Made by a program: the position numbers and the translations under genes. A DNA stretch of 64,000 bases from the NCBI GenBank assembly GCA_050178035.1, contig JBFXGK010000001.1, forward strand, positions 128,679 through 192,678. Reading direction: 5' to 3'. The stretch's first letter is position 1; every line of letters begins with the position of its first letter. The notes under the pieces were generated by a model. The model ran no database searches. It had not been told where the DNA came from and saw only the letters and a program-made list of their open reading frames with translations. Positions 1,834 through 59,519 of the stretch are shown piece after piece. Source of the stretch: Kiritimatiellia bacterium. Its GTDB lineage: Bacteria; Verrucomicrobiota; Kiritimatiellia; JAKQHR01.

Positions 1834-1840
1834 GCCGGGT

Positions 1841-4228: not shown

Positions 4229-5022
4229 TACCCGTGTGATTCGGTCGGGAACCGGCCCTGCTCGACTTCGTCCTTGTAGCTGGTCAGGGCGCGGGTGATT
4301 TCGGTGCCGAGTTCGGCGTAGCGTTTCACGAAGCGCGGCTGATTCCCATGATAGAGGCCAAGCAAATCGTGCCAGACCAGCACCTGACCATCACACCCGG
4401 GGCCTGCACCGATTCCAATGGTTGGAATATTTATCGAGGCGGTAATTTCTGCCGCCAGTTTCTGCGGAATGCATTCAAGCACCAGCGAAAAAGCTCCGGC
4501 CTCGGCCAGGTCTTTCGCGTCCTGTTTGAGCTGCTCCGCATCTTGTTCTGTTTTGGCCTGAACCCTGAACCCTCCAAAAACATTTACGCTCTGCGGGGTC
4601 AAACCAAGATGGGCCTGCACCGGGATCCCGTTGGCCACCATTCGTTGAACCAGTTCAACGCGCACGGCCCCGCCCTCGACCTTGACGGCATCAGCCCCGG
4701 CTTCTTTTAAAAACCGCCCGGCATTGATCAATGCTTCGTCTTCGGAGCCCTGATAGGAAAGAAAAGGCATGTCCGCCACCACCATGGCCTGTTTCACGGC
4801 TCGCGAAACCGCGCGGGTGTGGTGAAGCATTTCTTCCATGGTGACGGGAAGCGTTGTGTCGTATCCAAGAACAGTCATGCCCAGCGAGTCTCCCACAAGC
4901 ACCAGCGGGATGCCCGCCTCGTCCGCGATCCGGGCGGATGAAAAATCATAGGCCGTGATGCAGGCAATTTTCCGCTGACCCTTCTGGGCCTTGATCGTGA
5001 GCACTGTCCACTGTTTTTTCAT
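4225..5022 (-). CDS. panB: 3-methyl-2-oxobutanoate hydroxymethyltransferase
   Basis: ORF 4225..5073; [24 protein letters not shown] motifs. Start set to ATG at 5022 (MKKQWTVL), just after folK stop. Confidence 0.9.
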
Positions 5023-7723: not shown

Positions 7724-7752
7724 GCTTTGCCTCCATCGGCCTTTTCAAAAAG

Positions 7753-7829
7753 TTCCAATGATTGGAAGTTTCTTTCTGAAAAGTTCCAACCATTGGAAAA
7801 TCTAAACACGATTCCTCCAATGATTGGAA
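7753..7829. promoter_or_regulatory. array of three 7-1-7 palindromes TTCCAAT-N-ATTGGAA, 31-bp centre spacing, 30-106 bp upstream of dapA start
   Basis: Read directly: TTCCAATGATTGGAA 7753-7767, TTCCAACCATTGGAA 7784-7798, cTCCAATGATTGGAA 7815-7829. Confidence 0.5.
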
Positions 7830-7919
7830 GTTTTTACGCATTATTTTCCAGCGGCTGGAACTTAAAGTCAGCCTCCGGCCGACACCCGGAACGCTGGTGT
7901 CCTTCCGCAGAAAATCCGC

Positions 7920-7974: not shown

Positions 7975-9290
7975 GCACATCTGTCCCAGTATTACCGCCA
8001 CAGCATCAACTGGTTAGAAGAGGGAGGTGTTTCTGGGGAGGCGTCTGCCTGCTGAAAAGCCTGTAAAATGGGCACTTTTTCAAATAGCGAGACACTCAAG
8101 ACCTGTAGAATAATGTAGAGTGAAGCTTCTATTTTCAGCCGCTTCTTTATGATGGCGACCAGCAGATATACTGTGATCGCAATCCAGATTTGAGATTTAA
8201 CCGCATTGGGCGAGGTTCCGTAGAATGACTTGATCCGCAGATTCTGCTTGATCCATTTAAAAAATATTTCGATGTTCCAGCGGCCCTTGAAAAGTTCTGC
8301 AACCGTGAGGGGAGGAAGTGAAAAATTATTGGTAAGGAAAACCAGCGTCCGGTTTTCCTGATCACGATACTTGATGCGCCGGAGATGTTCCGGAAAGTAT
8401 CGGGCTGTCTGTGTACCCGTGAGAATGATGGTCTGATCGCAAAGGATGCCGCAGTCTCTATCGGATGGATGGGAGTAGATACGTTGGAACTGAAGATTGG
8501 ATCGGGCCCGTGTAACAAAATAGGCTTTAAGCGAGTGTAGCAGATAAAGGCGTTTGAAATCCAAATAGGCGCGGTCCATTACATAGTAGGCTCCGGGAAC
8601 CGGCAGGATGTGATCCAATACACTGGCATCACCTCGTTTGCCATCTGTAATCAGTATATATTCCGGGATATTGCCGGATAAGTTGAGAAGGGTATGCATC
8701 TTCACGGCCCCTTTGGTCCGGCAGAAATGAGCCCAAGGAAACATCGAAAGACACAGGTCGATCACCGTTGAGTCCAATGCGTATACATCGGCACCCAAAT
8801 CCGGCATCAGCGGATCATCCGCGTATAATCGTCTGGCCTCAGGAATCAGGACGTGAGCAAAATCAGCGTAGATGCGCCAGTCCCGGGTTTCGTTCGCAAC
8901 AGAAAGATTGTTGCGCGAGACGCGACTGTGAATCCCCAAGTGGTACAGCTTGCCGCTCACAGCCCGCAAACAGGATTCGATGTCCCGCAAACTTTCACGG
9001 CAAGTCAACTGAGCAAAGGCCATCACACGGAACTGCTCAGAGCACCGGAACGTCTTCACCTTGTAATCGCCCTGATAGCGATTCACCAACGTCTGAAATC
9101 GCCACCAGGGCAACTGCTGCATCAGCTGAGAAAATACGGTTGTTCCAGAATACATAAGGTTGATCTCCTCCTCCTGATCAACCTTATAGGAAAAACCAAT
9201 TTCAAGTCGGAAAGGATGTAATATCAACACATCCTTATGATGTAACGTGCGTTATAACTATTTTATGCGAAAACGTTGGGACAGATGTGC
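7975..9290 (-). mobile_element. IS element, IS4-family-like, ~1.3 kb, with terminal inverted repeats and flanking direct repeat
   Basis: Perfect 14-bp inverted repeats gcacatctgtccca (7975-7988) and tgggacagatgtgc (9277-9290); flanking direct repeat cattttt at 7968-7974 and 9291-9297 (7-9 bp depending on exact IR end); one DDE transposase ORF inside. Confidence 0.8.
7992..9155 (-). CDS. DDE transposase (IS4 family-like)
   Basis: ORF 7992..9230; start set to ATG at 9155 (MYSGTTVFSQLMQQLP...). Candidate DDE residues in YALDSTVIDL, YVMDRAYLDF, WNIEIFFKWIKQNLRIK. Confidence 0.85.
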   Translation of the reverse strand: MYSGTTVFSQLMQQLPWWRFQTLVNRYQGDYKVKTFRCSEQFRVMAFAQLTCRESLRDIESCLRAVSGKLYHLGIHSRVSRNNLSVANETRDWRIYADFAHVLIPEARRLYADDPLMPDLGADVYALDSTVIDLCLSMFPWAHFCRTKGAVKMHTLLNLSGNIPEYILITDGKRGDASVLDHILPVPGAYYVMDRAYLDFKRLYLLHSLKAYFVTRARSNLQFQRIYSHPSDRDCGILCDQTIILTGTQTARYFPEHLRRIKYRDQENRTLVFLTNNFSLPPLTVAELFKGRWNIEIFFKWIKQNLRIKSFYGTSPNAVKSQIWIAITVYLLVAIIKKRLKIEASLYIILQVLSVSLFEKVPILQAFQQADASPETPPSSNQLMLWR

Positions 9291-22761: not shown

Positions 22762-22854
22762 ATTCCCTCTTGCTCATGACAGTTTATTCGACGATCCCCG
22801 ACAAAGCAAGGGGGTGCTTCAACAATATCCGCGGCCTGCCGCCGGTTCAAAAAG

Positions 22855-22931
22855 TTCCAATCATTGGAAGTATTTCCGGGAAAAGTTCCAACCATTGGAA
22901 GTTTTGTGAAGAAAAGTTCCAATGATTGGAA
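22855..22931. promoter_or_regulatory. array of three 7-1-7 palindromes TTCCAAT-N-ATTGGAA, 31-bp centre spacing, upstream of the Cys-rich/rrf2/hcp operon
   Basis: TTCCAATCATTGGAA 22855-22869, TTCCAACCATTGGAA 22886-22900, TTCCAATGATTGGAA 22917-22931. Confidence 0.55.
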
Positions 22932-22961
22932 AAACCGCACCCTGTCTTTCGCGTGCTGCGT

Positions 22962-43313: not shown

Positions 43314-44422
43314 TGCAGACCACTTTCCACATTATATTCCATGGCGGCAAGCAATTTTGCGCCTGCGCTGTTCACAAGATCGTATCCTTCTTTCGAAAAA
43401 CGCGTCGCGTGACGCCTGCCGGTAAATGCATCAATCCAGCACGCGACAAGATTCAGCGAAGGGACCACCAGAAGCACATCGTGCCCCGAATGACCCTGAG
43501 CCAGGAAGGCATCCTCCGGCAGTGCCGGGAGCAGGCGCTGACCCTTCTTATCCTTTCCATTCACCCACCAGGTGTAGCTGTAGCTCCCAAGGTGCCTTTC
43601 CTGATTTGCGCCGGAACCCAGACTGCGCTGGTTTTCGATCATCTCCGTCTCCACCTGTTCCGTGCGCGGGAAATCCGGAGGCAGAGGAGAAGAAACCGCC
43701 TGCACCGCCAGGTCTCGCGGAACAATTTGCTTGCGGCCCCACCGGCCCCTGTTCAGGTACAGAAGCCCGAACCGCGCAAAGTCGCGCACCGAAATCCTCA
43801 GGCGGCCGGGATGCGACCGCTCGTGATGCAGCGTGGCGCCGTCCTGGAATCCAAGCGGTCCGGCCAGATATTTGTCCAGAATATCAATATCTGCGCCGTC
43901 ATACCCCACTTCATGAACATAGAACACCAGCGTATCGGCCAGAAGCGCCGCCTGGTAATCGCTGTAGTTGAACGCCGTGCCGGGCAGCTCCTCCATGCCG
44001 TAGCAGGCCGTCTGTTGCAGCAAATGACGCCAGGTGACTTCCCTGTCCTTGAATCCGAGCGGTTCATTGATGCGCCCCAGATCGGGCTGATGCAAACCGA
44101 CCTTCTCATCCAAATCCCTGATCACGCCCTCCTTGATGGACATATAGACAAAGTGGGCATAGACCGGTTTGCAGGCGGAGGAAACATCCAGCAGATGCGC
44201 ATAATGACCCCACCGCTTCACCACATAACCGTGTCGCACAATAATGCCGTGTCCGCCCACTTCCTTCACAAACTCCGCGAGACGGTCGGGCATAAAACCC
44301 GCGCGTTCCGGCGCGATGTGCTCCCAGTGCTCCCCGGGGAAGACCGGCTTCACCCGCCGATTGTCCGCGCATCCGGCCGAAAACAGAGCCGCGCAGAACA
44401 GGATGTGCAACAAATTCTTCAT
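43310..44422 (-). CDS. lipoprotein, serine hydrolase / beta-lactamase-like
   Basis: 370 aa; lipoprotein signal (LFSAGCADN), SxxK motif (SACK). Confidence 0.55.
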   Translation of the reverse strand: MKNLLHILFCAALFSAGCADNRRVKPVFPGEHWEHIAPERAGFMPDRLAEFVKEVGGHGIIVRHGYVVKRWGHYAHLLDVSSACKPVYAHFVYMSIKEGVIRDLDEKVGLHQPDLGRINEPLGFKDREVTWRHLLQQTACYGMEELPGTAFNYSDYQAALLADTLVFYVHEVGYDGADIDILDKYLAGPLGFQDGATLHHERSHPGRLRISVRDFARFGLLYLNRGRWGRKQIVPRDLAVQAVSSPLPPDFPRTEQVETEMIENQRSLGSGANQERHLGSYSYTWWVNGKDKKGQRLLPALPEDAFLAQGHSGHDVLLVVPSLNLVACWIDAFTGRRHATRFSKEGYDLVNSAGAKLLAAMEYNVESGLQ

Positions 44423-44510
44423 GCCTGCATACTAAACAGCGGCTGGACGCCTGAACAGGGAATAATAAGTCCGAAATTGAATCGCCGCGCGGATTATGTA
44501 TATTCATTGC

Positions 44511-44744
44511 ATGAAAGTAACAGTTAACCATACGGCCCATCTGAAACTGACGGGCATAGAACCGGGCAAGTCGGCGGAGATTGAAACCGGCGCCTCCATC
44601 GCCGATTTACTGCGAAAGTGCGGCGTGCAGGAATCCCATCTGCAGTTTGTGACACCCTATGTCAACGGGAAGGAAGTCCGCATCCATCACGTCCTTCAGG
44701 ACGGCGATGAATTAAAACTTTTCCTTCCGGTCGGCGGAGGCTGA
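44511..44744 (+). CDS. ThiS/MoaD-family sulfur-carrier-like small protein
   Basis: ORF 44496..44744; from MKVTVNH, 77 aa, ends in ...LFLPVGGG (C-terminal Gly-Gly). Confidence 0.6.
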   Translation: MKVTVNHTAHLKLTGIEPGKSAEIETGASIADLLRKCGVQESHLQFVTPYVNGKEVRIHHVLQDGDELKLFLPVGGG

Positions 44745-44747
44745 AAC

Positions 44748-44793
44748 TTCCAATCATTGGAAGTATTATAACGAATAGTTCCAGGGATTGGAA
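44748..44793. promoter_or_regulatory. two 7-1-7 palindromes, 31-bp centre spacing, 63-108 bp upstream of iorA
   Basis: TTCCAATCATTGGAA 44748-44762; TTCCAGGGATTGGAA 44779-44793 (degenerate left half). Confidence 0.5.
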
Positions 44794-44855
44794 CTTTTAC
44801 AAAGGCCTGCCTCCTTGCATAAATTCTTTCATTTGTTAAAGTCGGCCATTCTTGT

Positions 44856-46631
44856 TTGCGGCAGGATATGAAACCGACAAAAACACTGATGCTGGGAAAT
44901 GAAGCGATTGCGCGCGGCGCCTGGGAAGCCGGCGTGCGCGTGGCCACGGCCTATCCCGGCACTCCCAGCACCGAAGTCACCGAACACATCGCGCAGTACA
45001 AGGAAATAGATTCCGAGTGGTCGGTGAATGAAAAAGTCGCACTGGAAGTAGCGATTGGCGCTTCCGTGGCCGGCGCGCGCGCAGTCTGCACGATGAAGCA
45101 CGTTGGCCTCAATGTGGCCATGGATCCCCTGCTCTCGATTTCTTATCCCGGCGTCAATGCGGGGCTGGTGGTCGTGGTGGCGGACGACCCCGGACAGCAC
45201 AGTTCCCAGAACGAGCAGGACACCCGCTATTTCGGCATGGCCGGAAAGCTGCCGGTGCTCGAACCGTCCGACAGCCGCGAGTGCCGCGATTTCATGATCC
45301 GCGCGTTTGAAATCAGCGAGAAATTTGACACCCCTGTGATCGTTCGCACAACCACGCGCGTGGCCCACGCCTATGGTCTCGTGGATCATGGCGAGCGCGC
45401 TGACGTTCCGCTGCGCGAGTACGACAGCCGATTCGGGAAATACATGGTCGCGCCCGCATTCTCGCGCAAGCGCCGCGTGGTGGCCGAGGAGCGTCTTGGG
45501 AAACTGCGCGGGTTCGCGGAAACCACCGACTTGAATGTTTATGAGGAAGGCCGGTCTGATACCTGCATCGTCACCGGGAGCATTGCTTATCAGTACTGCA
45601 AGGAAGTCATGCCCGAGGCCGGTTTCTGCAAACTGGGGCTTTCGTATCCCCTGCCCGAAAAGAAGCTGAAAGATTTCTGCAGACGGTACCAGCAGGTTTT
45701 CGTTGTTGAGGAACTGGAACCCATTTTCGAAAACCACCTGAAGACGCTCGGAATCCCAGTGATTGGAAAAGATAAAGTTCCAATCATTGGAGAATTGAGC
45801 ACGGAGATCGTCCGAAAGGCGCTGACCGGGATTGCTCCGAAGCCGGCAGCATCCCAATTTGAAAACCTTCCTGTTCGTCCTCCGGTGCTCTGCCCCGGAT
45901 GCCATCACCGCGGACCGTTCTATGTGATGAAGAAACTCAAGCTGAAAGTGGCCGGCGACATCGGATGCTACACGCTGACCGCCTCGCCGCCGCTGAGCAT
46001 CATGGACACCGCGATCTGCATGGGCGCGGGCATCGGCATGGCCTTCGGCATGCAGAAGGCGCGCGGAAAGGATTTCGCGGGAAAATCTATCGCGGTCATC
46101 GGCGACTCGACCTTCTGGCATTCCGGCATGACCGGCCTCCTGGACATTGTCTATAACCGCGGCATCACCACGGTTGTCATTTTGGACAACAGCATCACCG
46201 CGATGACCGGGCATCAGGAGAATCCATCCAGCGGCAGGACTCTCAGCGGAGAAACCGTGCCTGCGATCAGCTTTGCGGATTTTGCAAAATCCATCGGCAT
46301 CAGGCATGTGCGCGAAGTGGATGCCTTCAACCTGAAGGAACTCGAAACAGTCATGCGCGAGGAACTGGCGCGCGAGGAGCCGTCGGTGATCATCACCAAA
46401 CGCATCTGCATCCTGCACCCGTGTGCGGTCAGGCATTTCCCGCTGAAGGTGAATCCGGATCTCTGCAAGAGCTGCATGAAATGCCTTTCGATCGGATGCC
46501 CCGCCATTTCCTTCGACGGCGACAAGGTGAAGATTGATCAGGTGCTTTGCGTGGGATGCGAACTGTGCGCGGGCATATGCCCGTTCCATGCGATTGAAAA
46601 GCAGCCCAAACCCGACGGAGGCGAATCTTGA
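44856..46631 (+). CDS. iorA: indolepyruvate ferredoxin oxidoreductase subunit alpha
   Basis: 591 aa; TPP-binding and 4Fe-4S ferredoxin motifs (CKSCMKC...CPAISF, CVGCELCAGICP). Confidence 0.95.
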   Translation: MRQDMKPTKTLMLGNEAIARGAWEAGVRVATAYPGTPSTEVTEHIAQYKEIDSEWSVNEKVALEVAIGASVAGARAVCTMKHVGLNVAMDPLLSISYPGVNAGLVVVVADDPGQHSSQNEQDTRYFGMAGKLPVLEPSDSRECRDFMIRAFEISEKFDTPVIVRTTTRVAHAYGLVDHGERADVPLREYDSRFGKYMVAPAFSRKRRVVAEERLGKLRGFAETTDLNVYEEGRSDTCIVTGSIAYQYCKEVMPEAGFCKLGLSYPLPEKKLKDFCRRYQQVFVVEELEPIFENHLKTLGIPVIGKDKVPIIGELSTEIVRKALTGIAPKPAASQFENLPVRPPVLCPGCHHRGPFYVMKKLKLKVAGDIGCYTLTASPPLSIMDTAICMGAGIGMAFGMQKARGKDFAGKSIAVIGDSTFWHSGMTGLLDIVYNRGITTVVILDNSITAMTGHQENPSSGRTLSGETVPAISFADFAKSIGIRHVREVDAFNLKELETVMREELAREEPSVIITKRICILHPCAVRHFPLKVNPDLCKSCMKCLSIGCPAISFDGDKVKIDQVLCVGCELCAGICPFHAIEKQPKPDGGES

Positions 46632-47227
46632 AGTCCGCGACCAACATCCTGATTGCCGCCGTAGGCGGACAGGGCGCGCTGCTGGCTTCGAAGATTCTGG
46701 GAGCCTGCGCGACCGCGCGCGGCGACGATGTGAAGATGTCGGAAATCCACGGCATGGCCCAGCGCGGCGGAAGCGTGGTGACCCATGTGCGGTTCGGGCA
46801 GAAGGTTTTTTCGCCGACCATCGAACAGGGAACTGCGGATGTGCTGCTGGCCTTTGAGATGCTGGAAGCGGCACGTTACGCAACGATGTTGAAAGCCGGC
46901 GGGACCGTGATTTTGAACACGCAGGCCATCGCGCCGCTCCCGGTGCTCACCAACGAAATGCCCTACCCCGCCGATATCATCGGCCGTTTGCAGAAAATGG
47001 ATCTCCGGGTGTGGCACGTGGATGCCCTCGACCTTGCGCGAAAGGCCGGCCATGTCAAAACCGTGAACACCGTCCTCATCGGCATGTATGCGCGGATGGA
47101 CGGCGGATCCGCCGAACCATGGCTGAAGGTGCTTTCAGAAAATCTGCCCGAACGGCTTTTTAAAGTGAACCAGGCCGCCTTCATGGCCGGTTATGAAATC
47201 AGTCCTCCGTGGACAAAGCAGGAGTAA
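46628..47227 (+). CDS. iorB: indolepyruvate oxidoreductase subunit beta
   Basis: 199 aa; IAAVGGQGALLASKIL motif; TTG start overlapping iorA stop. Confidence 0.9.
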   Translation: MKSATNILIAAVGGQGALLASKILGACATARGDDVKMSEIHGMAQRGGSVVTHVRFGQKVFSPTIEQGTADVLLAFEMLEAARYATMLKAGGTVILNTQAIAPLPVLTNEMPYPADIIGRLQKMDLRVWHVDALDLARKAGHVKTVNTVLIGMYARMDGGSAEPWLKVLSENLPERLFKVNQAAFMAGYEISPPWTKQE

Positions 47228-47230
47228 TCC

Positions 47231-48532
47231 GTGATCTGGAATAGAATCTTTGAATGCATGTCCCGCAATGAATTAACCGCATGGCAGACCAAGCGCCTGA
47301 AGGAGACTGTAGAGCGGGTCTATGAAAAAGTTCCCTTCTACCGTCGCAAGATGGATGAGCTGGGCATCAAGCCGAAGGATATTAAAAGCCTTGAGGATAT
47401 CCGGCATCTGCCCATGACCACCAAGCAGGATCTGCGCGACAACTATCCCTTTGGGATGTTCTCCTCGCCCATGTCCGAAATCATCCGCCTGCACGCCTCG
47501 TCGGGCACAACCGGTAAACCCACCGTAGTCGGCTATGCGCGGGAGGACATTGATCTGTGGGCCGACGTCATGGCGCGCACGCTCTGCAGCGCGGGCGCGA
47601 CGGAACACGATATCATCCAGATTGCCTACGGCTACGGCCTTTTCACCGGTGGGCTTGGCGTGCACTACGGGGCGGAAAAGCTCGGTGCAACGGCCATCCC
47701 GGTTTCGGGCGGCAACACCCAGCGGCAGATTCAGATTCTGCAGGATTTCGGGCCCACGCTGCTTGCCTGCACCCCGTCCTATTCCCTTTTCCTCGCGGAA
47801 GCGCTCGCGGAGCGCAATATTCATCCGGGCGATCTCAAGCTCAAGGCCGCCGTGCTGGGCGCGGAGCCGTGGACCGAGAACATGCGCACCGCCATTGAAA
47901 AGAATCTTGGCGTCAAGGCCATTGATATTTACGGCCTCAGCGAAATCATCGGCCCCGGAGTGGCCTATGAATGCATGGAGCAGAATGGCCTGCACATCAA
48001 CGAGGATCATTTCTATCCCGAGATCATAGATCCTTCCACGCTGAAGGTTCTTGAGCCGGGGCAGCACGGCGAACTGGTCTTCACCACGATCACGAAGCAG
48101 GGAATGCCGCTCCTGCGCTACCGCACGCGCGACCTGACCAGCCTGATTACGGAAACCTGCCCTTGCGGGCGCACCACCGTCCGCATGCACAAGTGCCAGG
48201 GCCGCAGCGACGACATGCTCATCATCCGCGGCGTGAACGTATTCCCGTCGCAGATCGAAAGTGTTCTGCTGGAAATGGACGGAACGCGCCCGCACTACCT
48301 GCTCATCATTGACCGCGTGAACAATCTCGATCAGCTCACGCTCCAGGTTGAGGTGGACGCGCAGTTCTTCTCGGACGAGATCAAGCAGCTCGAGGCGCTG
48401 AGCAGGCGCATCAAGCACAATGTGGAAAGCACGCTGGGCCTGTCGGTGAACGTAAGACTGGTGGAGCCGCAGACCATCGAACGAAGCGAGGGCAAGGCCA
48501 AACGCGTGATAGACAACCGCAAACTTTCATAA
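47231..48532 (+). CDS. paaK: phenylacetate--CoA ligase family protein
   Basis: 433 aa; [14 protein letters not shown]-binding motif and PaaK-type N-terminal domain. Confidence 0.9.
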
Positions 48533-48544
48533 GGAGGATTCGCC

Positions 48545-48970
48545 ATGATCATTCAGCAGGTTTCAATATTTCTTGAAAACAAATCCGGGCGGCTGGTGGA
48601 AGTCACCGGGGCTTTGGCTGAAGCCGGCGTCAACATCTCCGCGCTGAGTATTGCGGAGACGTCTGACTATGGCGTGCTTCGCTGCGTCGTATCGCATCCC
48701 CAGAAGGCCATGGATCTTCTCAAGGCCAAACACTTCTCGGCCCGCCTGACGGATGTCATCTGCATGGCGACGCCCAACCAGCCGGGAGCACTGCACCGCT
48801 GCCTGAAAATACTCGCTGATGCCAATATCAGTGTGGAATACATGTATGCCTTCGCCATCGGCGACCGCGCGCTGGTCGTCATCCGCACCGACAACATCAA
48901 GGAAACCATCAGTGTCCTTCAGCACCACAAAGTGGACCTGCTGAAATCGAGCGAACTGTATCAGGTGTGA
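48545..48970 (+). CDS. ACT domain-containing protein
   Basis: 141 aa; two ACT-like segments; commonly follows paaK-like ligases in anaerobes. Confidence 0.8.
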   Translation: MIIQQVSIFLENKSGRLVEVTGALAEAGVNISALSIAETSDYGVLRCVVSHPQKAMDLLKAKHFSARLTDVICMATPNQPGALHRCLKILADANISVEYMYAFAIGDRALVVIRTDNIKETISVLQHHKVDLLKSSELYQV

Positions 48971-49070
48971 GCAGTTTTTGGCGCCTGGGGAGCCATGGCC
49001 ATACGACGAGCCATGATGATTAGGCCTTTTGTCTGTCTTTAGCGGGAGGGCGTAGTGTATATAGAAATTC

Positions 49071-50063
49071 ATGCGCAGGATGACTGTCATCTTGGTTCTG
49101 GCGGCGGCCGTTTGGATGCCGGCGGCTGATGGCCGGGATTACCTTGTTTTCGATGTGGTCGGCGACAGCATTTCCGCGGGGGTGAATCCGGAGTGCGGAA
49201 CCTATGGCTGGGTCCACATGCTGTTTGGACAAACGAACTGCGGGCAGGCGCTTAATTCCCAAACCCTCACAAACCTCTGGCCCGGCATCACTGCTTACAA
49301 CAGCGCCGTTTCTGGCTCCACCGCGAGGCAGTGGGCATGGGCGGCGCCTTCTTATCTGCAGACTGTCTCCAACCACCATCCCGATCTTGTCGTGGTTTTC
49401 ATCGGCGGAAATGACGGACTCGGCTATGCGTGCGACGGTTTCTATTCACCGCAGGAACAGGGAGAGTTTCGAACCAACCTGACGCTGATCCTGCAAAAGC
49501 TCCACAGTTTCTGCCCCGCGCCGGAAATCATCGTCGCAAACTACTACGACCTCTTCGACGGCTTCAGCAGCAGCCTTCCCCCGCTCTACGCGGCCTATAC
49601 CAATCTTTCCGCCGCTGTGCGCGAGGGAAACCGCATGATTGAAGAGATTGCATTCAGCAACGGATGCTTCCATGTGGACGTTCATTCAGAGTTCATGCAC
49701 CACTGCTATGGCGCGGAACTGGGTGACACGAACCATCTCTCCCCCGCCTACGTGCGCACGCCGCTCTCGGCATTCGACATTCATCCCGTGACTGCGGGCC
49801 ACAATACGATCCGAGAACTGATATTCGAACGGCTCACAGAGCTGCATCGGATTCCCGAGTTCACGGCGGCTTCCGCCGGGATCAGCACCATCAGCCTCCA
49901 ATGGAGGAGCGGCATCGGCCAGAGCTATGTGGTTGAACGCTCAACGAATTTGACCGGAGCATTCATCGGAGTGGCCACCAACATCGCCACGCCGCCGGCC
50001 AATGTGTTCAACGAGGACATCGGGGAAATCAACCGCGCATTCTATCGCATCAGGGTTGAATAG
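49071..50063 (+). CDS. secreted SGNH/GDSL-family hydrolase
   Basis: 330 aa; signal peptide, GDSIS block, GGNDG block, DxxH catalytic motif region. Confidence 0.75.
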   Translation: MRRMTVILVLAAAVWMPAADGRDYLVFDVVGDSISAGVNPECGTYGWVHMLFGQTNCGQALNSQTLTNLWPGITAYNSAVSGSTARQWAWAAPSYLQTVSNHHPDLVVVFIGGNDGLGYACDGFYSPQEQGEFRTNLTLILQKLHSFCPAPEIIVANYYDLFDGFSSSLPPLYAAYTNLSAAVREGNRMIEEIAFSNGCFHVDVHSEFMHHCYGAELGDTNHLSPAYVRTPLSAFDIHPVTAGHNTIRELIFERLTELHRIPEFTAASAGISTISLQWRSGIGQSYVVERSTNLTGAFIGVATNIATPPANVFNEDIGEINRAFYRIRVE

Positions 50064-50069
50064 CCGTCA

Positions 50070-51638
50070 TTATGCCGTGCGAATGCCTTCCGAGTCCGTG
50101 TGGATCAAGCCGTTTATCAAGTGCCCTTTGCCCGCCAGACCCAGGATGAAGCAGACGGCGGCGGCGAGCAGATAGCCGTGGCCGACACTTGATGTGAGTG
50201 CGATTTGCATTTTGGGGGAATGGATCACGCCCACGAAGCTCAGCAGCGCAGCCGCGAGGAAGAATCCGGCGGCCTTTTTGAGCTGGCGGTCAATCAGCGC
50301 AGCGGTTGCCGCGCCCCAAAGGAGTCCGACCACAATCGCGCCGCCGGCGACAGTGGTGTGCCCCGTCACATACGCGCCCTGCTGCAGCATGTTTTTCATC
50401 AGTTCAGGATCGGTCACGATCGCAGGCGCCGTTGTGTCGCCCATCGCGCGCAGGGCCTGCAGCAGGCTTCCCCACTGCTTCACGAGCAGATCGGAGACGT
50501 GCGGAATGAGCGCAATGCCCACGGCCATGGCATGGTGCTTCGGGCAGGCCGTGAAGGCCTGGCCGGTGATCACCAGCGCAATATAGACCAGCATGGGCGC
50601 GACCGCGGCAATCGGGATGATCTTGTGCATGAAGCCCACAAAGCCCAGCACGGCGCCGAGGCAAAGCACAACGCCCACGGCGAGGGCATAGCCCGCGCGC
50701 GCGTTCATGCGTTTGTAGCCGGGGTGGCCGATATAAACGGTCGTCGGAAAGGCCGAACCGCAGAGCGCGCCAACCATAGTTCCCACTCCGTCCATGATCT
50801 GGCATTTTCGGACATCATACTTGTCGCCGGCGGCCTCGGCGGATTCAACGTTGTTCATGGTCTCGAGGAAGTTGTAGATCTCCACTGGAATAATGATGGC
50901 CAGCAGTTCCGGATGCGAGAAGAGCGCTTTCATGCCGACGATGATATCCTTGATCACGGGAACCGGAAAATGAAAACCAAGCTGTTCAAATTCCACTTTC
51001 GTGTGGCCCATGCAAAGGGAAATTACAGACCCGACAATTACGGCCAAAAGTCCCGCGGGAATGCCAAACGGCAGGCGGAGACCGGCCACCAGCCCGATAA
51101 GGATGATGATCATGGCTGGAAAGCCGATCAGGGGCGCTTCGAAGATTTCCGCAAAGGGAACGACCGCGATCCATGCGATGGCAATGCCCGCAAGGGTGCC
51201 CAGCATGCCCGCGCGCGGCGTGACGCGCTTGATCACCGGCCCGATCACGCTTCCCAGCGCCTCGATCACTCCGCCAAGAAGGGCGGCCGCTATGCCAACC
51301 TGCCAGGCGAGAACCGGATCCTGCGTGGCAAAATAAATCGGGCCGATCACGCCGAAAAGATAAACGAACATGACGGGCGTGCTGATGCCATAGGGAAGCG
51401 CCGTCACATTATCGCGTCCCTCTTTCTTGGCGAGCTGGACGGCAAGATAAGCGTAGAATGCGAGGCCGACGATCAATCCAACGCCAACGCCGGGCAGGAT
51501 GCGGCCAAAGACGATGGAGTCCGGCATTTTGAAGACAAACTTGCAGACACCGCTCAGAATGATCATGTTCGCGAGGTTGTCCGCAAACAACGCCCAAAAT
51601 GCGTTCCATTCGCCCTTTGAGAATATTCTTCCGCCCAT
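50070..51638 (-). CDS. NCS2-type (xanthine/uracil/vitamin C or AzgA-like) permease
   Basis: 522 aa; 13-14 TM helices; weak similarity by eye to purine permeases; family assignment tentative. Confidence 0.55.
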   Translation of the reverse strand: MGGRIFSKGEWNAFWALFADNLANMIILSGVCKFVFKMPDSIVFGRILPGVGVGLIVGLAFYAYLAVQLAKKEGRDNVTALPYGISTPVMFVYLFGVIGPIYFATQDPVLAWQVGIAAALLGGVIEALGSVIGPVIKRVTPRAGMLGTLAGIAIAWIAVVPFAEIFEAPLIGFPAMIIILIGLVAGLRLPFGIPAGLLAVIVGSVISLCMGHTKVEFEQLGFHFPVPVIKDIIVGMKALFSHPELLAIIIPVEIYNFLETMNNVESAEAAGDKYDVRKCQIMDGVGTMVGALCGSAFPTTVYIGHPGYKRMNARAGYALAVGVVLCLGAVLGFVGFMHKIIPIAAVAPMLVYIALVITGQAFTACPKHHAMAVGIALIPHVSDLLVKQWGSLLQALRAMGDTTAPAIVTDPELMKNMLQQGAYVTGHTTVAGGAIVVGLLWGAATAALIDRQLKKAAGFFLAAALLSFVGVIHSPKMQIALTSSVGHGYLLAAAVCFILGLAGKGHLINGLIHTDSEGIRTA

Positions 51639-51689
51639 ATCACTCCTCCAATGTTATGCAGCCGCTGAATGAAGATTTTAAAGAAATTT

Positions 51690-51785
51690 AGGTGTTTTTA
51701 AGCATTTTCGAGCATATTTTGGCCGTTTTTTGCCATTTTTAGGCATTTTTTAGCCCTTTTTGCTCATTTTTGAGCATTTTTTAAG
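51690..51785. repeat. phased T-tract array
   Basis: ggtgtttttaagcattttcgagcatattttggccgttttttgccatttttaggcattttttagccctttttgctcatttttgagcattttttaagccc; nine T runs at ~10-11 bp period. Confidence 0.55.
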
Positions 51786-51792
51786 CCCTGAA

Positions 51793-53208
51793 TTATTTTG
51801 CTTTCAAATGTTTGGCAAGGCCCTCGTAGGCCTTTTTGAACGGGTCCATCGGTGCGTTCAGCACGCCCGCGCCCACCTGCCCCACGCCGGGCTCCTTGTG
51901 AGCCACGCCGGTGTCAATGAACGGCAGAATGTTCTTTTCAACCACCTTCACAACATCAATGCCCGTCGGTGTACCGCGGAAGTTCAGGGATGGAATCTGA
52001 TACATGTTGTTTTCCGCCGCCGTGATTTCGTACATCGTCATCGTGTACTGCAGCGCATCCGCCGCGGTTCCGCCCACGAACTGCACAATGGCCGGCGAGG
52101 CTGCGATCGCGAAGCCGCCGAGCCCGCCCGTTTCCGTGATGGCGCTGTCGCCAATGTCGCGCGCAGCGTCGGCCTTGCTGAAGCCGGGGAAATACAGCGC
52201 ATCCGGAACCAGCGCTTCGCCGACATACCACTTCCCTCCGGTGGCGGAAATCTGCACGCCGAAGTCCGTGCCGTTGCGGGCCATGACCGTCGCGACGCTG
52301 CTGTTTTTGATCCCGCGCGCGGCATCCAGCACGCATTTGCTGGCGGGCATGGACAGGTTCAGGAAGAAATGGTCGTTGCTGTGGATGAACTCCAGGACGG
52401 CCGCCGCATCGGTGCGGTTCCCGGTGGTCTTGATGATGGCCGGGGCCAGCAGGCGATAGAGAAGCGAAGTTCCCGCGCGGTTGCGGTTGTGCACTTCGTC
52501 GCCCATGTGCAGGGCCTGCGCGATCAGGTTCTTGAGATCAATGAAGCCAAGCTGTTCAACCGCACGCTGCAGGACCGGATAGAGCACCTTTTCCATCCAG
52601 CGCAGGCGATCAATCACCTCCGGGCTGTAGGCTCCGTAGCGGAGCACCTTGCCGAGTCCCTCGTTCAGCGTGCAGTAGGCCTTGTTGCCAAAGGTCTTGT
52701 TTTCGATGATCCACACCGGCATCGAAGGCGTGACCACGCCCGCCATCGGGCCGACCGCGCAGTGCTCGTGGCAAGGCGCAAATTTCAATTTCCCTGACTT
52801 GGCTAACTTCTCCGCCTCTGCCGGGGTTTTCGCCATGCCCTCATAAAGCAGTCCGCCCATCATTGCGCCGCGCATCGGGCCGCACATGCGGTCCCAGGTG
52901 ATCGGCGGGCCGGAATGCAGGAACAGATTCTTTTTCATTCCGGGGATCACGTCAATCGCGCGCGCAAGGCCCACCACGCGCGGCATGCCGCGCAGGATGA
53001 TGTCCATCGCCTTCTTGTTGGCCTTTTCGATCTGGGCCTTTTTGCCAGCAATGATTCGAACCGCCTCCGGCGAAACATCCACCGGCGGCTTCCACTGCAC
53101 CTGAATGGCGGGCGTCCCGACTTCGTCCAGCGCGGCCTTGAAGGATTCGAGTCCAATATTGACCACTTTAACTTGACTGTTGAAAAGTTCTTTCACGGCC
53201 ATGATCAT
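51793..53208 (-). CDS. DUF1116 domain protein (YlbE-like)
   Basis: 471 aa; near-collinear to E. coli YlbE as I recall it (HSGPP, CHEHCAVGPM, NEGLGKVLRYGAY, FFLNLSMPASK, GIAHKEPGVGQVGAG). Confidence 0.85.
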   Translation of the reverse strand: MIMAVKELFNSQVKVVNIGLESFKAALDEVGTPAIQVQWKPPVDVSPEAVRIIAGKKAQIEKANKKAMDIILRGMPRVVGLARAIDVIPGMKKNLFLHSGPPITWDRMCGPMRGAMMGGLLYEGMAKTPAEAEKLAKSGKLKFAPCHEHCAVGPMAGVVTPSMPVWIIENKTFGNKAYCTLNEGLGKVLRYGAYSPEVIDRLRWMEKVLYPVLQRAVEQLGFIDLKNLIAQALHMGDEVHNRNRAGTSLLYRLLAPAIIKTTGNRTDAAAVLEFIHSNDHFFLNLSMPASKCVLDAARGIKNSSVATVMARNGTDFGVQISATGGKWYVGEALVPDALYFPGFSKADAARDIGDSAITETGGLGGFAIAASPAIVQFVGGTAADALQYTMTMYEITAAENNMYQIPSLNFRGTPTGIDVVKVVEKNILPFIDTGVAHKEPGVGQVGAGVLNAPMDPFKKAYEGLAKHLKAK

Positions 53209-54743
53209 TCTCCCAGTTTTTCAATGATGCTGCCGGCCAGCCTGCAGGCTTCCGCATTGGTCGGCATAACGATTGCGCCCGCCTTGCGCAGGGTTTCCCT
53301 GACCTTGCTCCGGTTCTGCGGATCGCGGGCGGTGCCCGTGATCGAACAGACCACCAGCACTTTTTTGCAGGCCTTTTTAATGACGTCCTGAAGTTCCCCT
53401 GCGGGATCCATGTTGGAACCGTATCCCAGCACCACATCGAGCAGAATGACGGCTGTTTCAGGGTCGCTGGCCTCCTGCAGGATGCGCTGGTTGCGGAGCG
53501 AGAAATCAATCATCGGATGCGGACGGCCCACTGTGAATTCGTCCTCGCCAAGATCAATGACGGTGTTCTTCCGGCTCCTGAGCAGATCCTTTAACTGCTT
53601 CGCGGTTCCGGAAGGCGAATTGGCATACAGCCCGCCCGGCAGCTTCTGGAAAAGAATCTGTGCCTCGGTGCAGAAGGTGCCGCCGCTGAACAGGCCGCGC
53701 AGATATTTCTGCTTGGGCTTGCAGCGGTTCGCGAGCGCCGAGGCCTGCGACCGGATGGCCGCATCATTTGCGGCCAGCTGGCTGTCCACATCCCTGACCT
53801 TTGCGCCGCGCGAAAGCGCCACCGCCTTGAGGGCGGCCTCTTCCAGCGTGACCGCCATCAAAGCATCCTTTGGCTTAGCCCCAAGGAACATTGAGACCAC
53901 CGGCTTGCTGATTTTTGCCGTGATTTTTCCGATCTCGCGCATCACGCTCTCATGCGGCGGCTTTGAAACCAGCAGGATGACCTTCGTCTGCCGGTCTTCC
54001 GCCAGCGCCTTCAACGCCTCGATGAACATGATGCCGCCGATGTCCTTTTTGACATCGCGGCCGCCTGTGCCGATCGCCTGCGATATGCCGCAGCCTTCGT
54101 TGGAAATGATGCAGGTGACTTCCTGGCAGCCCGTGCCGGAAGCGGCCACCACGCCGATGTCGCCACGGTTCACGACATTCGCAAACGCCAGCGGAACGCC
54201 GTTGATGATGGCTGTTCCGCAGTCGGGCCCCATGACCAGCAGGCCTTTCCTGCGGGCAAAGAGTTTCAGCTTCTTCTCATCCTCAATGGAAACATTGTCG
54301 GAAAACAGCATCACATGCAGCCCTTTTTCGAGCGCCTTCATGGCTTCGGCCGCTGCATATCGGCCGGCAATGGAAATGATGGCGAGGTTTGCGTCGGGAA
54401 CTTTCTCCAGCGCGCTGGCAAGGTTCGTGGCGGTGGCCGATGCCTGTCCTCCGGAGGATACCTTCTTGCGGCTTGCCGAAAGCAAATCCTCGGCGGCCTT
54501 CAACGCCGCCTCGGCCGCGGCCTGCGTTTTTGCGCGAATGCCGATCAGCAGGTCTGTATCCGTGGCATTTTTGAACTCGTTCAGCAGAAGCCCCGAATTA
54601 GCCAGGATACTCCTGTTTTCCTTCGTGCCCATCACCACGGCGGCATCCACAACGCCATCGCGGGCGGAAAGTTCACGGCCCACATTCATCAGCGCCACAG
54701 AATCAAAGTAGGCGCCCTTTTTAATCACACCTTTAACCACCAT
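53205..54743 (-). CDS. fdrA: FdrA family protein (CoA-binding, succinyl-CoA synthetase-alpha-like)
   Basis: ORF 53205..54797; start set to ATG at 54743 (MVVKGVIKKGAYFDSVALM); motifs KLPDANLAIISIAG, GLLVMGPDCGTAIINGVPLAFANV, LGEDEFTVGRPHPMID. Confidence 0.85.
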   Translation of the reverse strand: MVVKGVIKKGAYFDSVALMNVGRELSARDGVVDAAVVMGTKENRSILANSGLLLNEFKNATDTDLLIGIRAKTQAAAEAALKAAEDLLSASRKKVSSGGQASATATNLASALEKVPDANLAIISIAGRYAAAEAMKALEKGLHVMLFSDNVSIEDEKKLKLFARRKGLLVMGPDCGTAIINGVPLAFANVVNRGDIGVVAASGTGCQEVTCIISNEGCGISQAIGTGGRDVKKDIGGIMFIEALKALAEDRQTKVILLVSKPPHESVMREIGKITAKISKPVVSMFLGAKPKDALMAVTLEEAALKAVALSRGAKVRDVDSQLAANDAAIRSQASALANRCKPKQKYLRGLFSGGTFCTEAQILFQKLPGGLYANSPSGTAKQLKDLLRSRKNTVIDLGEDEFTVGRPHPMIDFSLRNQRILQEASDPETAVILLDVVLGYGSNMDPAGELQDVIKKACKKVLVVCSITGTARDPQNRSKVRETLRKAGAIVMPTNAEACRLAGSIIEKLGE

Positions 54744-54757
54744 GATACAAACTCCCT

Positions 54758-56921
<2,164 letters not shown>

Positions 56922-57081: not shown

Positions 57082-58701
57082 ATGAACAGCAAAGTATCGC
57101 ACGCGGCAAACGCTTATGCGGCAGGCGGCCGGAAAACCGTTGATCCGTCCAATATTGTCCCTTTTCTCGAGGCCGTGCTGAAGCCCGGCATCCGCGTGTG
57201 CCTCGAGGGCGACAACCAGAAACAGGCTGATTTTCTGGCCCAGGCTCTCACGCAGGTGAATCCGGAAAAGGTCAACCGCCTGCACATGGTGCAATCGTCG
57301 CTGGTGCTGCCGGAGCACCTTGATGTTTTTGAGAAAGGCATCGCCGAGAAACTTGATTTTGCGTACTCCGGCCCGCAGGCCAAGCGCCTTTACAAGATGG
57401 TGGGTGAAGGCAAGGTCAAGATCGGCTCGATTCACACCTACCTTGAACTGTATTCCCGGTATTTCTCCGATCTGAATCCGCAGGTCTCTCTGATTGTGGC
57501 GGACTACGCTGATCCCTCGGGGAATCTTTACACGGGATACAACACGGAAGACACCCCGCTCATCTGCGAGGCCACCGCATTCAACCGCGGCATTGTCATC
57601 GCGCAGGTGAAGGAGGTTCGAGACGCCCTGCCCCGTGTGGACATCCCGGGCGACTGGGTGGATTTTGTCGTGCCCACCGGAAAGAATTACTATATTCAGC
57701 CGCTGTTCACAAAGGATCCGGCAAAGATTTCCGAGATGCAGATTCTGCTGGCCATGATGGTTATCAAGGGGATCTACGAGAAATACAAAATCAATTCGCT
57801 GAATCACGGGGTCGGCTACAATGCAGCAGCCATCGAACTGCTGCTCCCAAAACTCGCCGGCCACCTGAAGGGCAAAATCTGCCAGTACTGGGCGCTGAAC
57901 CCCCATCCCACGCTGATCCCCGCCATCGAAAGCGGCTTTGTAAAGCGCATCTATTCCTTTGGAGGCGAGCCGGGCATGGAGGAATACTGCAAAGCCCATC
58001 CGGACATCTTCTCCATCGGTCCCGACGGATCCATGCGGAGCGGACGGTTGAACGCCCAGCTTCTGGGTTTGTACGGGGTGGACTGCTTCGTGGGCTCCAC
58101 GCTCCAAATTGACCGGTTTGGCAACTCCTCAACCGCCATTGACGGCATGATCGCCGGCTTCGGCGGCGCACCCAACCTCGGCAGCACGCCTCCCGGACGC
58201 CGGCATTCCTCGCCGACCTGGGAAAAGAGCTCACGCGAAAACAAGACCTTTAAGAAGTATACCGGTTATAAATCCGGCCGCAAAATCGTGGTTCAGATGA
58301 CGCCGACCGTGAGCGAGAAAAAGGAAATACCCGTATTCGTGGAGGAACTGGACGCAGCGAAACTTTTCAGGAGCGGGAAGTTTGAAACCCCGCCGGTCAT
58401 GCTCTATGGGGACAGCATCACACACATTGTCACCGAATGCGGCATCGCCAACCTGATGAAATGCGCCTCGCCCAGAGAGCGCATGAAGGCCGTGGCCTCC
58501 GTCGCCGGCAGCACCGATGTGGGCAAAGCATCCACCGCCGAAGACAAGGCCGCGCTGCGGAAGAAGGGCATTCTGCAGACACCTGAAGATTTGGGCATTG
58601 ACCCGGCAGCGGCCAAAAAGGATTTGCTGGCCGCGCACAGTTTGGAGGACCTCGTGAAATGGTCCAAGGGGCTCTATCACATTCCGGAGGGACTGAAATG
58701 A
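57082..58701 (+). CDS. malonate decarboxylase alpha-subunit homologue (MdcA-like acyl/CoA transferase)
   Basis: 539 aa; strong collinearity by memory with MdcA (LEGDNQKQADFL, LDFAYSGPQ, IGSIHTYLELY, GNLYTGYNTEDTP, LNPHPTLIPAIESG, GSTLQIDRFGNSS); no other mdc subunit genes in the window. Confidence 0.75.
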   Translation: MNSKVSHAANAYAAGGRKTVDPSNIVPFLEAVLKPGIRVCLEGDNQKQADFLAQALTQVNPEKVNRLHMVQSSLVLPEHLDVFEKGIAEKLDFAYSGPQAKRLYKMVGEGKVKIGSIHTYLELYSRYFSDLNPQVSLIVADYADPSGNLYTGYNTEDTPLICEATAFNRGIVIAQVKEVRDALPRVDIPGDWVDFVVPTGKNYYIQPLFTKDPAKISEMQILLAMMVIKGIYEKYKINSLNHGVGYNAAAIELLLPKLAGHLKGKICQYWALNPHPTLIPAIESGFVKRIYSFGGEPGMEEYCKAHPDIFSIGPDGSMRSGRLNAQLLGLYGVDCFVGSTLQIDRFGNSSTAIDGMIAGFGGAPNLGSTPPGRRHSSPTWEKSSRENKTFKKYTGYKSGRKIVVQMTPTVSEKKEIPVFVEELDAAKLFRSGKFETPPVMLYGDSITHIVTECGIANLMKCASPRERMKAVASVAGSTDVGKASTAEDKAALRKKGILQTPEDLGIDPAAAKKDLLAAHSLEDLVKWSKGLYHIPEGLK

Positions 58702-59519
58702 AAAAGTGTGTCGTATCCTGCGTGCAAATGTTCATCCGTCCTCTGGACGTGCTCGGCAACACCGAACGCGCCCTCCATTTTCTGGAAAAGGCCAAAAAGG
58801 ACTGCAAATCCGACCTGGTTGTCTTTCAGGAATCCGTGACGACCGGTTTTACGCCCAACATGCCCGCGAAGGAGTTTCTGAAGGTCATTGACAAGGTTCC
58901 CGGCAAGCAGATTGCACCGATCCTGGATGCAGCCAAGAAACTGAAACTGCACATTGTGTGGCCGGATTACGAGAAAGTCGGCCAGAAAATATTCAACTCC
59001 GCATTCCTGATCGGCTCGAACGGAAAGATCATTGGCAAGTACTGCAAAACGCATCCGTTCGACAAAGAGAGCACCGAACGCGGCGGATGGACCACACCCG
59101 GCACCGAGATGCGAGTTTTCCAGACGCCGTTTGCGAAAATCGGCATGATCATTTGTTTTGACGGCGACTATTCCGAGGCTTCGCGCCTGCTGGCCAAAAA
59201 GGGCGCTGAAATCATCGCCCGCCCGTCGGCCCTGCTGCGGAACTATGAAATCTGGTCGCTCACCAACCGCGCACGCGCGTTCGACAATCACGTCTTTCTG
59301 GCGGCCGCGAATGCGACCGGGTTTGACGCCGCGGGCAGGCACTATTACGGGCACAGCATGATCGTCGGCCCCGCAGGAAACATCATGGCGCTGGCGGCCG
59401 CGCAGGAGGACATAATCAGCGCAGAGCTCGACCCGAAAATGATCCGCCAGACGTTCCCGGGCTCCCCCGCGCAGCGGGTATACGACCATCTCGCCGACCT
59501 GAATCCGCGTTTGAAGTAA
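58698..59519 (+). CDS. carbon-nitrogen hydrolase (nitrilase-superfamily amidase)
   Basis: ORF 58659..59519; start set to ATG at 58698 (MKKCVVSCVQM), overlapping the MdcA-like stop (ATGA); catalytic E-K-C triad context (VVFQESVTT, CKTHPF, MIICFDGDY). Confidence 0.8.
   Translation: MKKCVVSCVQMFIRPLDVLGNTERALHFLEKAKKDCKSDLVVFQESVTTGFTPNMPAKEFLKVIDKVPGKQIAPILDAAKKLKLHIVWPDYEKVGQKIFNSAFLIGSNGKIIGKYCKTHPFDKESTERGGWTTPGTEMRVFQTPFAKIGMIICFDGDYSEASRLLAKKGAEIIARPSALLRNYEIWSLTNRARAFDNHVFLAAANATGFDAAGRHYYGHSMIVGPAGNIMALAAAQEDIISAELDPKMIRQTFPGSPAQRVYDHLADLNPRLK

Follow-up and report, generated by a model that had tools for sequence, protein, structure and literature searches.

Comparative context of a putatively self-contained ior–paaK–ACT unit and its ThiS-like neighbor in Kiritimatiellia

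The window analyzed here is a 64-kb stretch of DNA (64,000 nt) from a Kiritimatiellia bacterium (GenBank assembly GCA_050178035.1, contig JBFXGK010000001.1, positions 128,679–192,678, read on the forward strand). Its region 44511–48970 contains a small gene of the ThiS/MoaD family, followed by iorA and iorB for the two subunits of an indolepyruvate/arylpyruvate:ferredoxin oxidoreductase (IOR), a gene for a PaaK-family ligase, and a gene for an ACT protein. The list of open reading frames (ORFs) has these five co-directional genes where a first-pass annotation of the DNA had placed them, and Pfam, NCBIfam, and PDB matches agree both with the identities it had given (ThiS/MoaD-like, iorA, iorB, paaK, and ACT) and with its general view of an arylpyruvate/aryl-acetate pathway operon. 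The annotation singled out the small ubiquitin-like gene as the unusual element, either co-opted by ior or merely adjacent to it; mere adjacency is what the comparative evidence shows. The features of the locus are as follows.

44477–44504, plus strand: promoter-like element of the ThiS-like gene (TTGAAT, 16-nt spacer, TATATT), from a consensus scan only
44511–44744, plus strand: ThiS-like gene, 77 amino acids, ThiS/MoaD family (PF02597, 35.9 bits)
44746–44764: palindrome 1, ACTTCCAATCATTGGAAGT, between the ThiS-like gene and iorA
44777–44795: palindrome 2, AGTTCCAGGGATTGGAACT, between the ThiS-like gene and iorA
44809–44847, plus strand: conserved iorA leader with candidate promoter (TTGCAT at 44815–44820, 16-nt spacer, TAAAGT at 44837–44842)
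44868–46631, plus strand: iorA, alpha subunit of indolepyruvate/arylpyruvate:ferredoxin oxidoreductase, with thiamine pyrophosphate (TPP) and [4Fe-4S] domains
46628–47227, plus strand: iorB, beta subunit (NF005325, 246.1 bits; PF01558, 3e-40)
47231–48532, plus strand: PaaK-family (AMP-forming type) aryl-acetate–CoA ligase, with AMP-binding and AMP-binding_C_2 domains
48545–48970, plus strand: stand-alone double-ACT (ACT_8) protein (PF19571, 1e-34)

Gene assignments and synteny of the locus

IorA scored 689.4 bits against TIGR03336, the equivalog model of the IOR alpha subunit (cutoff 650.9). A Pfam scan located POR_N, TPP_enzyme_C, and Fer4 (residues 531–585) domains in the protein, and two ferredoxin-type cysteine motifs, CKSCMKCLSIGCP and CVGCELCAGICP, are readable in its translation. 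The mechanically defined ORF begins with a TTG codon at 44856 (44856–46631); the ATG at 44868 lines up with the start of the homolog in a related contig (L004, see below) and is the probable start codon. IorB likewise passes the cutoff of the IOR beta equivalog model (NF005325, cutoff 230), and iorA and iorB overlap by 4 nt. Judged by these domains, IorAB is a two-subunit TPP- and Fe–S-dependent 2-oxoacid:ferredoxin oxidoreductase of the IOR type.

The ligase consists of an AMP-binding core (PF00501) and the short C-terminal domain AMP-binding_C_2 (PF14535, 8e-35), and it matches the structures of PaaK1 (2y27, 3e-144; 2y4o, 8e-137) and of a Bacteroides ligase (4r1l, 3e-122). Its score against the PaaK equivalog model TIGR02155 (619.2) lies slightly under the cutoff of 646.3, and we therefore filed it as a PaaK-family aryl-acetate–CoA ligase and not as an enzyme of the Paa pathway. 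The ACT protein covers residues 1–139 of the 141-position model PF19571 (119.6 bits), meaning that it is full-length, and it matches PDB entry 2f06 (3e-40). The remainder of the window carries housekeeping genes together with rubrerythrin, hybrid-cluster protein, and flavodiiron protein, stress proteins of anaerobes that point to an anaerobic host and fit a ferredoxin-dependent enzyme. The operon belongs to the known type that combines IOR with an arylacetate–CoA ligase, as in Bacteroides. This gene set is already characterized in gut Bacteroides and other anaerobes, with the “unusual” ubiquitin-like gene lying outside the operon; what the window documents is the combination of IOR, an AMP-forming-type ligase, and a putative ACT sensor in Kiritimatiellia from sludge and digester communities.

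The locus was compared with related contigs, labeled L001–L031. Three of these (L001, L015, and L016) encode ThiS-like proteins with 81% identity to the window copy. L001 and L015 retain the block upstream of it, comprising genes for a 4HBT thioesterase, a small multidrug-resistance (MDR) export protein, and a beta-lactamase-like protein, followed by the ThiS-like gene itself, and L016 retains the proximal part of this block. All three keep three copies of the palindrome, beyond which lie a convergent GDSL lipase gene and a gene for a membrane protein of ~990 residues; ior is absent from the ~5 kb downstream of the ThiS-like gene in each of them. In L003, unrelated genes follow the ThiS-like gene, again without ior. 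On the other side of the comparison, L004 carries iorA–iorB–paaK–ACT (92%, 86%, 92%, and 88% protein identity to the window, respectively) with a divergent topA on one side and a MatE transporter gene on the other, and this ior locus contains no ThiS-like gene.

The extent of nucleotide homology (blastn) follows the same division. In L001, L015, and L016, homology to the window stops at 44801; in L004, it is limited to 44744–48974, that is, from the stop codon of the ThiS-like gene to 4 nt past the ACT stop codon. With breakpoints at 44744/44801 and at 48974, the conserved unit consists of the palindromes, the promoter-like leader, and the four genes, without the ThiS-like gene. A block of ~40 nt directly 5′ of iorA, GCC.CCTTGCATAAATT.TTTCAT.TG.TAAAGTCGGCC, hardly varies among the window, L014, and L004. 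Because topA, the upstream gene in L004, is divergent, iorA must be transcribed from the intergenic region there, and TTGCAT-16-TAAAGT is the likely ior promoter, as far as conservation and consensus can indicate. Another scan match, TTTACA-18-TAAATT (44796–44825), was not accepted as the ior promoter, because L004 does not conserve its −35 part.

The arrangement of the window, with the ThiS-like gene next to ior, recurs only in L014, a contig from activated sludge that lacks the beta-lactamase gene on the left side. Along window positions 44496–48076, nucleotide identity between the two is 86.5% in the ThiS-like segment, 77.5% in the palindrome region, and 97–99.5% in ior, a mosaic that points to recombination at the palindrome array. 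Within ior, two patches of lower identity (86–88%; 46062–46261 and 47662–47861) suggest recombination between lineages inside the operon as well. Among nine distant ior loci (L005–L013; Synergistaceae, Planctomycetota, Lentisphaerota, Angelakisella, and Paludibacter), the only ORFs of 50–130 residues ending in GG in the fetched flanks are spurious, and none of them is near or upstream of ior. Adjacency of the ThiS-like gene and iorA, proposed in the first-pass annotation as a check, is thus not conserved in independent lineages: it occurs in the window and in L014 and is absent from L001, L015, L016, L003, L004, and L005–L013, which leaves the suggested co-option of the ThiS-like protein by ior without support. 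A simple insertion of an ior cassette into an otherwise collinear region does not describe the change either, since homology to L001, L015, and L016 is missing downstream of ior as well and the GDSL genes are unrelated.

Taken together, these comparisons favor a reading to which we assign a probability of about 80%. Positions 44744–48974 would form a self-contained unit, made up of a REP-like palindrome array (see below), a conserved leader, and iorA–iorB–paaK–ACT, with a promoter of its own. The ThiS-like gene would be a separate neighbor with no demonstrable role in ior, brought beside it by a rearrangement at the palindrome array in this lineage only. Two observations weigh against this reading. 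The palindromes would be weak terminators, as their stems are AT-rich and the plus strand has only 4 T, and transcription of the ThiS-like gene may therefore run on into iorA to some extent. Moreover, the adjacency is also found in L014 and hence is not a one-off assembly accident, although ior of L014 is nearly identical to that of the window.

The PaaK–ACT pair and the direction of the pathway

The ACT protein is encoded directly after a PaaK-type ligase of 432–433 residues in all three distant genomes that were examined, namely those of Iocasia (Halanaerobiales), a KSB1 bacterium, and Chitinispirillum (Fibrobacterota), and the same adjacency is present in L004 and in the window. The pairs, with gaps of 13–31 nt, are located as follows.

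L029, 4684–6426: PaaK–ACT pair, Halanaerobiales
L030, 4689–7648: PaaK–ACT pair, KSB1
L031, 4671–6417: PaaK–ACT pair, Fibrobacterota

In none of these three genomes is ior adjacent to the pair. The presence of PaaK–ACT without ior in three other lineages indicates a conserved two-gene module, which is joined with iorAB in one operon here. In the KSB1 bacterium, an aminotransferase gene follows the pair, and thrA/B/C genes lie alongside. The closest homologs of the ACT protein are widespread, and in Lentisphaerota loci, too, ior is linked to a paaK homolog, in another gene order. The double-ACT protein, the conserved partner of the ligase, is most likely an amino acid sensor that modulates the ligase and thereby tunes the pathway. 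No relevant paper dealing with ACT proteins alongside IOR or PaaK was found in the library searched, and the function of the ACT partner in this module appears unstudied.

IorAB is expected to interconvert arylpyruvates (indole-, phenyl-, and hydroxyphenylpyruvate), coenzyme A (CoA), and oxidized ferredoxin with arylacetyl-CoA, CO2, and reduced ferredoxin. The PaaK-family ligase would then connect arylacetyl-CoA with free aryl-acetate via ATP, AMP, and pyrophosphate (PPi). The first-pass annotation took the operon for the known route from arylpyruvates to aryl-acetates with ATP formation; the ATP gain is not an established reading, the ligase being of the PaaK family, whose characterized members are AMP-forming. 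The ATP-yielding route of Pyrococcus uses an ADP-forming synthetase. Both the Pyrococcus system (IOR with an ADP-forming acyl-CoA synthetase) and the clostridial HpdDEFG/HpdJ/HpdK system obtain ATP from substrate-level phosphorylation by an ADP-forming synthetase or a kinase, whereas the window operon has an AMP-forming-type ligase, which means that ATP gain is not the default expectation. What these systems share with the window is the conversion of arylpyruvate and CoA to arylacetyl-CoA, CO2, and reduced ferredoxin (PMC13285125). The documented ATP-yielding arylpyruvate route relies on a pair of phosphotransacylase and kinase (PMC13285125).

One known system close to the window in composition is that of Bacteroides (B. 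thetaiotaomicron and B. fragilis), in which a two-subunit IOR also lies beside a PaaK-family ligase in anaerobic hosts. Structures tie the two together further: the window ligase matches 4r1l, which is from B. thetaiotaomicron, and the window ACT protein matches 2f06. The systems differ in phylum, Kiritimatiellia being part of the Planctomycetes–Verrucomicrobia–Chlamydiae (PVC) group, and in that the window has four genes, including ACT, in one tight operon. The Bacteroides ligase next to IOR has been shown to be an AMP-forming arylacetate–CoA ligase, and AMP-forming ligases generally favor making acyl-CoA over breaking it down (PMC13285125). Bacteroides IOR and ligase may accordingly act biosynthetically, by reductive carboxylation of aryl-acetates to make aromatic amino acids (PMC13285125).

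For the Kiritimatiellia operon, we lean slightly toward such an assimilatory direction, because an AMP-forming type of ligase is present together with a putative ACT sensor. Aryl-acetate would be activated by the ligase, reductively carboxylated by IorAB, and made into an aromatic amino acid. A purely fermentative operation is somewhat less probable. Aromatic amino acids would in that case be transaminated, IorAB would oxidize the arylpyruvates, and the PaaK-type ligase would run in reverse (arylacetyl-CoA + AMP + PPi to aryl-acetate + ATP + CoA) for energy. Reversal of such a reaction has a precedent in Syntrophus, which runs an AMP-forming acetyl-CoA synthetase in reverse, and a fermentative role would also suit a host that looks like an anaerobic fermenter and has a glutamate dehydrogenase gene 7 kb away. 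IOR serves amino acid fermentation in Pyrococcus, and B. thetaiotaomicron IOR is tied to phenylacetate formation, both as summarized in PMC13285125. The latter link, which counts against assimilation and is given here at second hand from that paper, shows that at least one organism carrying this gene pair does use it catabolically, which keeps a fermentative role plausible. It is disfavored by the usual preference of AMP-forming ligases for acyl-CoA synthesis (PMC13285125) and by the operon itself, which contains none of the ATP-yielding partners mentioned above, neither the phosphotransacylase/kinase pair nor the ADP-forming synthetase. In addition, the ACT partner and the KSB1 context, with its aminotransferase and thr genes, fit biosynthetic feedback control better. 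The choice between assimilation and fermentation bears on whether these Kiritimatiellia scavenge aryl-acetates for aromatic amino acids or excrete them.

The phased palindrome family

The segment 44746–44795, within the 123 nt that separate the ThiS-like gene from iorA, consists of two copies, 31 nt apart, of a dispersed palindrome, AAAAGTTCCAAYSATTGGAASTTTT. Further arrays are present in the window at 7751–7833 (between an IS4-type transposase gene and dapA) and at 22853–22933 (beside a NosD-like gene), and the window contains 14 strand-matches to the motif compared with 0.04 expected by chance. Arrays of 2–4 copies occur at these three intergenic loci and in seven related contigs; every copy starts exactly 31 nt after the one before it, with divergent spacer sequences in between. 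The palindrome region has a predicted folding energy of −29.1 kcal/mol (z −5.9). A motif match at 4413 was not accepted as a member of the family, as it is solitary and lies inside panB. Genes around the arrays in the relatives are co-directional, convergent (L001), or divergent (L004). Positions of arrays in related contigs are as follows.

L001, 7238–7320
L003, 740–825
L004, 5808–5920
L014, 824–905
L015, 5236–5317
L016, 1566–1647

Across the related Kiritimatiellia contigs, the arrays coincide with synteny breakpoints. By its sequence and distribution, the array behaves as a REP-like dispersed repeat. It is like the repetitive extragenic palindromic (REP) sequences and bacterial interspersed mosaic elements (BIMEs) of enterobacteria in being composed of short imperfect intergenic palindromes that are multi-copy and grouped in small arrays, here at rearrangement breakpoints. 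It differs from them in its unrelated sequence and strict 31-nt phasing, and no transposase of the RAYT (REP-associated tyrosine transposase) type was seen here. As far as we checked, this palindrome family is undescribed, and a lineage-specific phased family that marks rearrangement breakpoints is mildly new.

The first-pass annotation had presented the palindrome pair as separating the ThiS-like gene from iorA, and the pair might be taken for a specific separator or operator of ior. Its dispersed nature speaks against this, since the same array at two other loci of the window means that it is not an ior-specific operator. A broader version, in which the palindromes are operator sites of a dimeric regulator that controls ior along with a regulon of other genes, is improbable in our estimation. 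Perfect dyad symmetry would suit such sites, as would the exact 31-nt spacing, which corresponds to about three helical turns, and the conservation of palindromes between diverging spacers. In addition, the window, L014, and L004 each have an array immediately 5′ of iorA, beside the candidate promoter. However, in L001, L015, and L016 the arrays are flanked by convergent genes, a setting in which a promoter would not be expected, and others are found beside the transposase/dapA and NosD-like genes, which are functionally unlinked to ior. No regulator gene accompanies the ior unit. Hence, we retain the REP-like dispersed repeat as the better description.

Inside iorA (45754–45792), there are two palindrome-like half-matches, TCCCAGTGATTGGAA and TTCCAATCATTGGAG, 24 nt apart, which code for PVIGKDKVPIIGE. 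Both are present in L004 (6875–6913), and at least the second is present in L014 (at about 1888). They may be coincidental, arising from repetition of the P(V/I)IG peptide, or may form an internal site for a palindrome-binding factor. Two genes for mobile-element-type enzymes were noted in the window: an IS4-family DDE transposase (DUF4372 and DDE_Tnp_1; 7992–9230, minus strand) directly beside one palindrome array, and a XerC/D-type tyrosine recombinase (844–1875, minus strand) near the start of the window.

The ThiS-like gene and the LPVGGG family

The description of the ThiS-like gene as ubiquitin-like was borne out, and that of its product as Gly–Gly-terminated needs a small amendment: the C terminus reads LPVGGG, with three glycines and not two. 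The PF02597 score of the protein exceeds the cutoff of 22.5, and its scores against the curated models for ThiS (TIGR01683; 21.5 vs. 37.45) and archaeal-type MoaD (TIGR01687; 22.4 vs. 49.5) lie under their cutoffs. An AlphaFold2 model (mean predicted local distance difference test, pLDDT, 85.6) has a beta-grasp fold, the top fold matches being SAMP1, MoaD, and ThiS, and a profile search against PDB sequences agrees with these matches. The exact protein is named “MoaD/ThiS family protein” in its NCBI entry. Ratios of nonsynonymous to synonymous substitutions (dN/dS) of 0.08–0.23 against five relatives indicate a real gene under purifying selection.

A −10-like motif, TGTATATT, located 5–15 nt before the ATG of the ThiS-like gene, is kept in L001, L002, and L003, L002 being among the ThiS-like relatives compared for this upstream motif. 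Its positions are as follows.

Window, 44496–44511
L001, 6990–7003
L003, 490–505

The promoter-like element ends 6 nt before the ATG, which suggests that the ThiS-like mRNA is leaderless or has a very short leader. Neither a TPP riboswitch nor any other Rfam family was detected in 44300–49200 at E ≤ 1, a range that takes in all of the sequence between the ThiS-like gene and its upstream neighbor.

An exhaustive HMMER search retrieved a coherent family of 141 clusters, mostly of exactly 77 residues and ending in (L/I)P(V/I)GGG. The genomic contexts of five distant members were read. In two of the five, a short ThiF gene lies 2–3 nt downstream; these ThiF partners pass the equivalog cutoffs of NF006395 (251 and 215 bits; cutoff 159) and TIGR02354, and the ThiS-like identity in these cases is 31–45%. 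Two others, from other Kiritimatiellia, have the gene between a 595–600-residue Fe–S protein resembling the N-terminal part of YgfK, with a 4-nt overlap, and SsnA; a second amidohydrolase, an Xdh-type molybdenum hydroxylase, and XdhC are encoded in the same clusters. In the fifth, the gene is divergent from such a YgfK/SsnA/Xdh cluster. The YgfK-like protein in these clusters is truncated, lacking the C-terminal flavin/NAD(P)H half. The LPVGGG gene is located in YgfK–SsnA–Xdh clusters at the following positions.

L022/L023/L024, 4217–7578
L028, 4202–7578
L025, 5003–6264

None of the five contexts contains ior. The distant members thus pair with ThiF or with Xdh/YgfK/SsnA clusters and never with ior, which is the kind of linkage that the first-pass annotation had named as speaking against its co-option idea. 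YgfK, SsnA, and XdhD have been shown to constitute a reductive uric acid degradation pathway (PMC12507026); that paper makes no mention of a sulfur carrier in the YgfK/SsnA cluster.

In the window itself, no gene for a ThiF/MoeB-type activating enzyme (E1) was found by tblastn with two ThiF proteins (best E 0.45), a tblastn search with the YgfK-like protein gave nothing significant, and the 54 ORFs scanned contain no Thi or Moa Pfam matches, including the acceptors ThiG and MoaE. Compared with ThiS–ThiF pairs (family 2; TIGR02354/NF006395), the window gene is alike in encoding a 77-residue beta-grasp protein with a C-terminal GG but differs in having no E1 gene within 64 kb, in scoring under the ThiS and MoaD cutoffs, and in having no TPP riboswitch. 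Judged by sequence and gene neighborhood, it is an orphan, an independent unit of a distinct 77-residue “LPVGGG” family of sulfur-carrier type, and not part of the ior operon. The tie of this family to uric acid/molybdenum-hydroxylase clusters in other Kiritimatiellia is mildly new. Going further, the family might represent distinct, undescribed sulfur carriers that serve mainly anaerobic purine/uric acid catabolism, the window copy being an orphan of that system that came to lie beside ior by rearrangement at the palindrome array; we consider this doubtful. One possible role of the LPVGGG protein would be to supply the sulfur (or selenium) ligand of the cofactor of Xdh-type molybdenum hydroxylase.

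That the ThiS-like protein was recruited to ior here is very improbable; it could, for example, donate sulfur, act as a small beta-grasp partner or adaptor for electron transfer, or modify proteins, and its gene would be cotranscribed with iorA. The shared strand and 123-nt gap, the adjacency in two contigs (window and L014), the lack of a strong plus-strand intrinsic terminator between the two genes, and the appearance of RnfH (8ahx_H), which belongs to the RNF NADH:ferredoxin oxidoreductase as a subunit, among the fold matches speak for recruitment, but the adjacency is missing in the next-closest relatives from both sides, the homology breakpoint falls between the two genes, ior retains its conserved leader where the ThiS-like gene is absent (L004), the nine distant ior loci have no small GG-ended ORF nearby, and the conserved partners of the family elsewhere are ThiF or Xdh/YgfK/SsnA. 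The protein is also not a ferredoxin, having a single, non-conserved cysteine. Recruitment to ior is largely refuted by this comparative context, which agrees with the view of the ThiS-like gene as a separate neighbor.

A cluster for oxamate carbamoyltransferase (AllG/FdrA/AllH) is present in the window ~7 kb from the ThiS-like gene. The features of this region are as follows.

50070–51638, minus strand: 522-residue polytopic membrane protein beside AllG, without Pfam or NCBIfam match
51793–53208, minus strand: AllG, oxamate carbamoyltransferase, purine/allantoin catabolism
53205–54797, minus strand: FdrA-like CoA-ligase protein of the same system
54758–55591, minus strand: AllH of the same system
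55572–56918: glutamate dehydrogenase, after AllH, preceded by the minus-strand region 50070–55591

At 57082–59519 (plus strand), a gene resembling the malonate decarboxylase alpha subunit (790 bits), with no other mdc genes visible in the window, overlaps the start of a carbon–nitrogen hydrolase gene, and this pairing is unusual.

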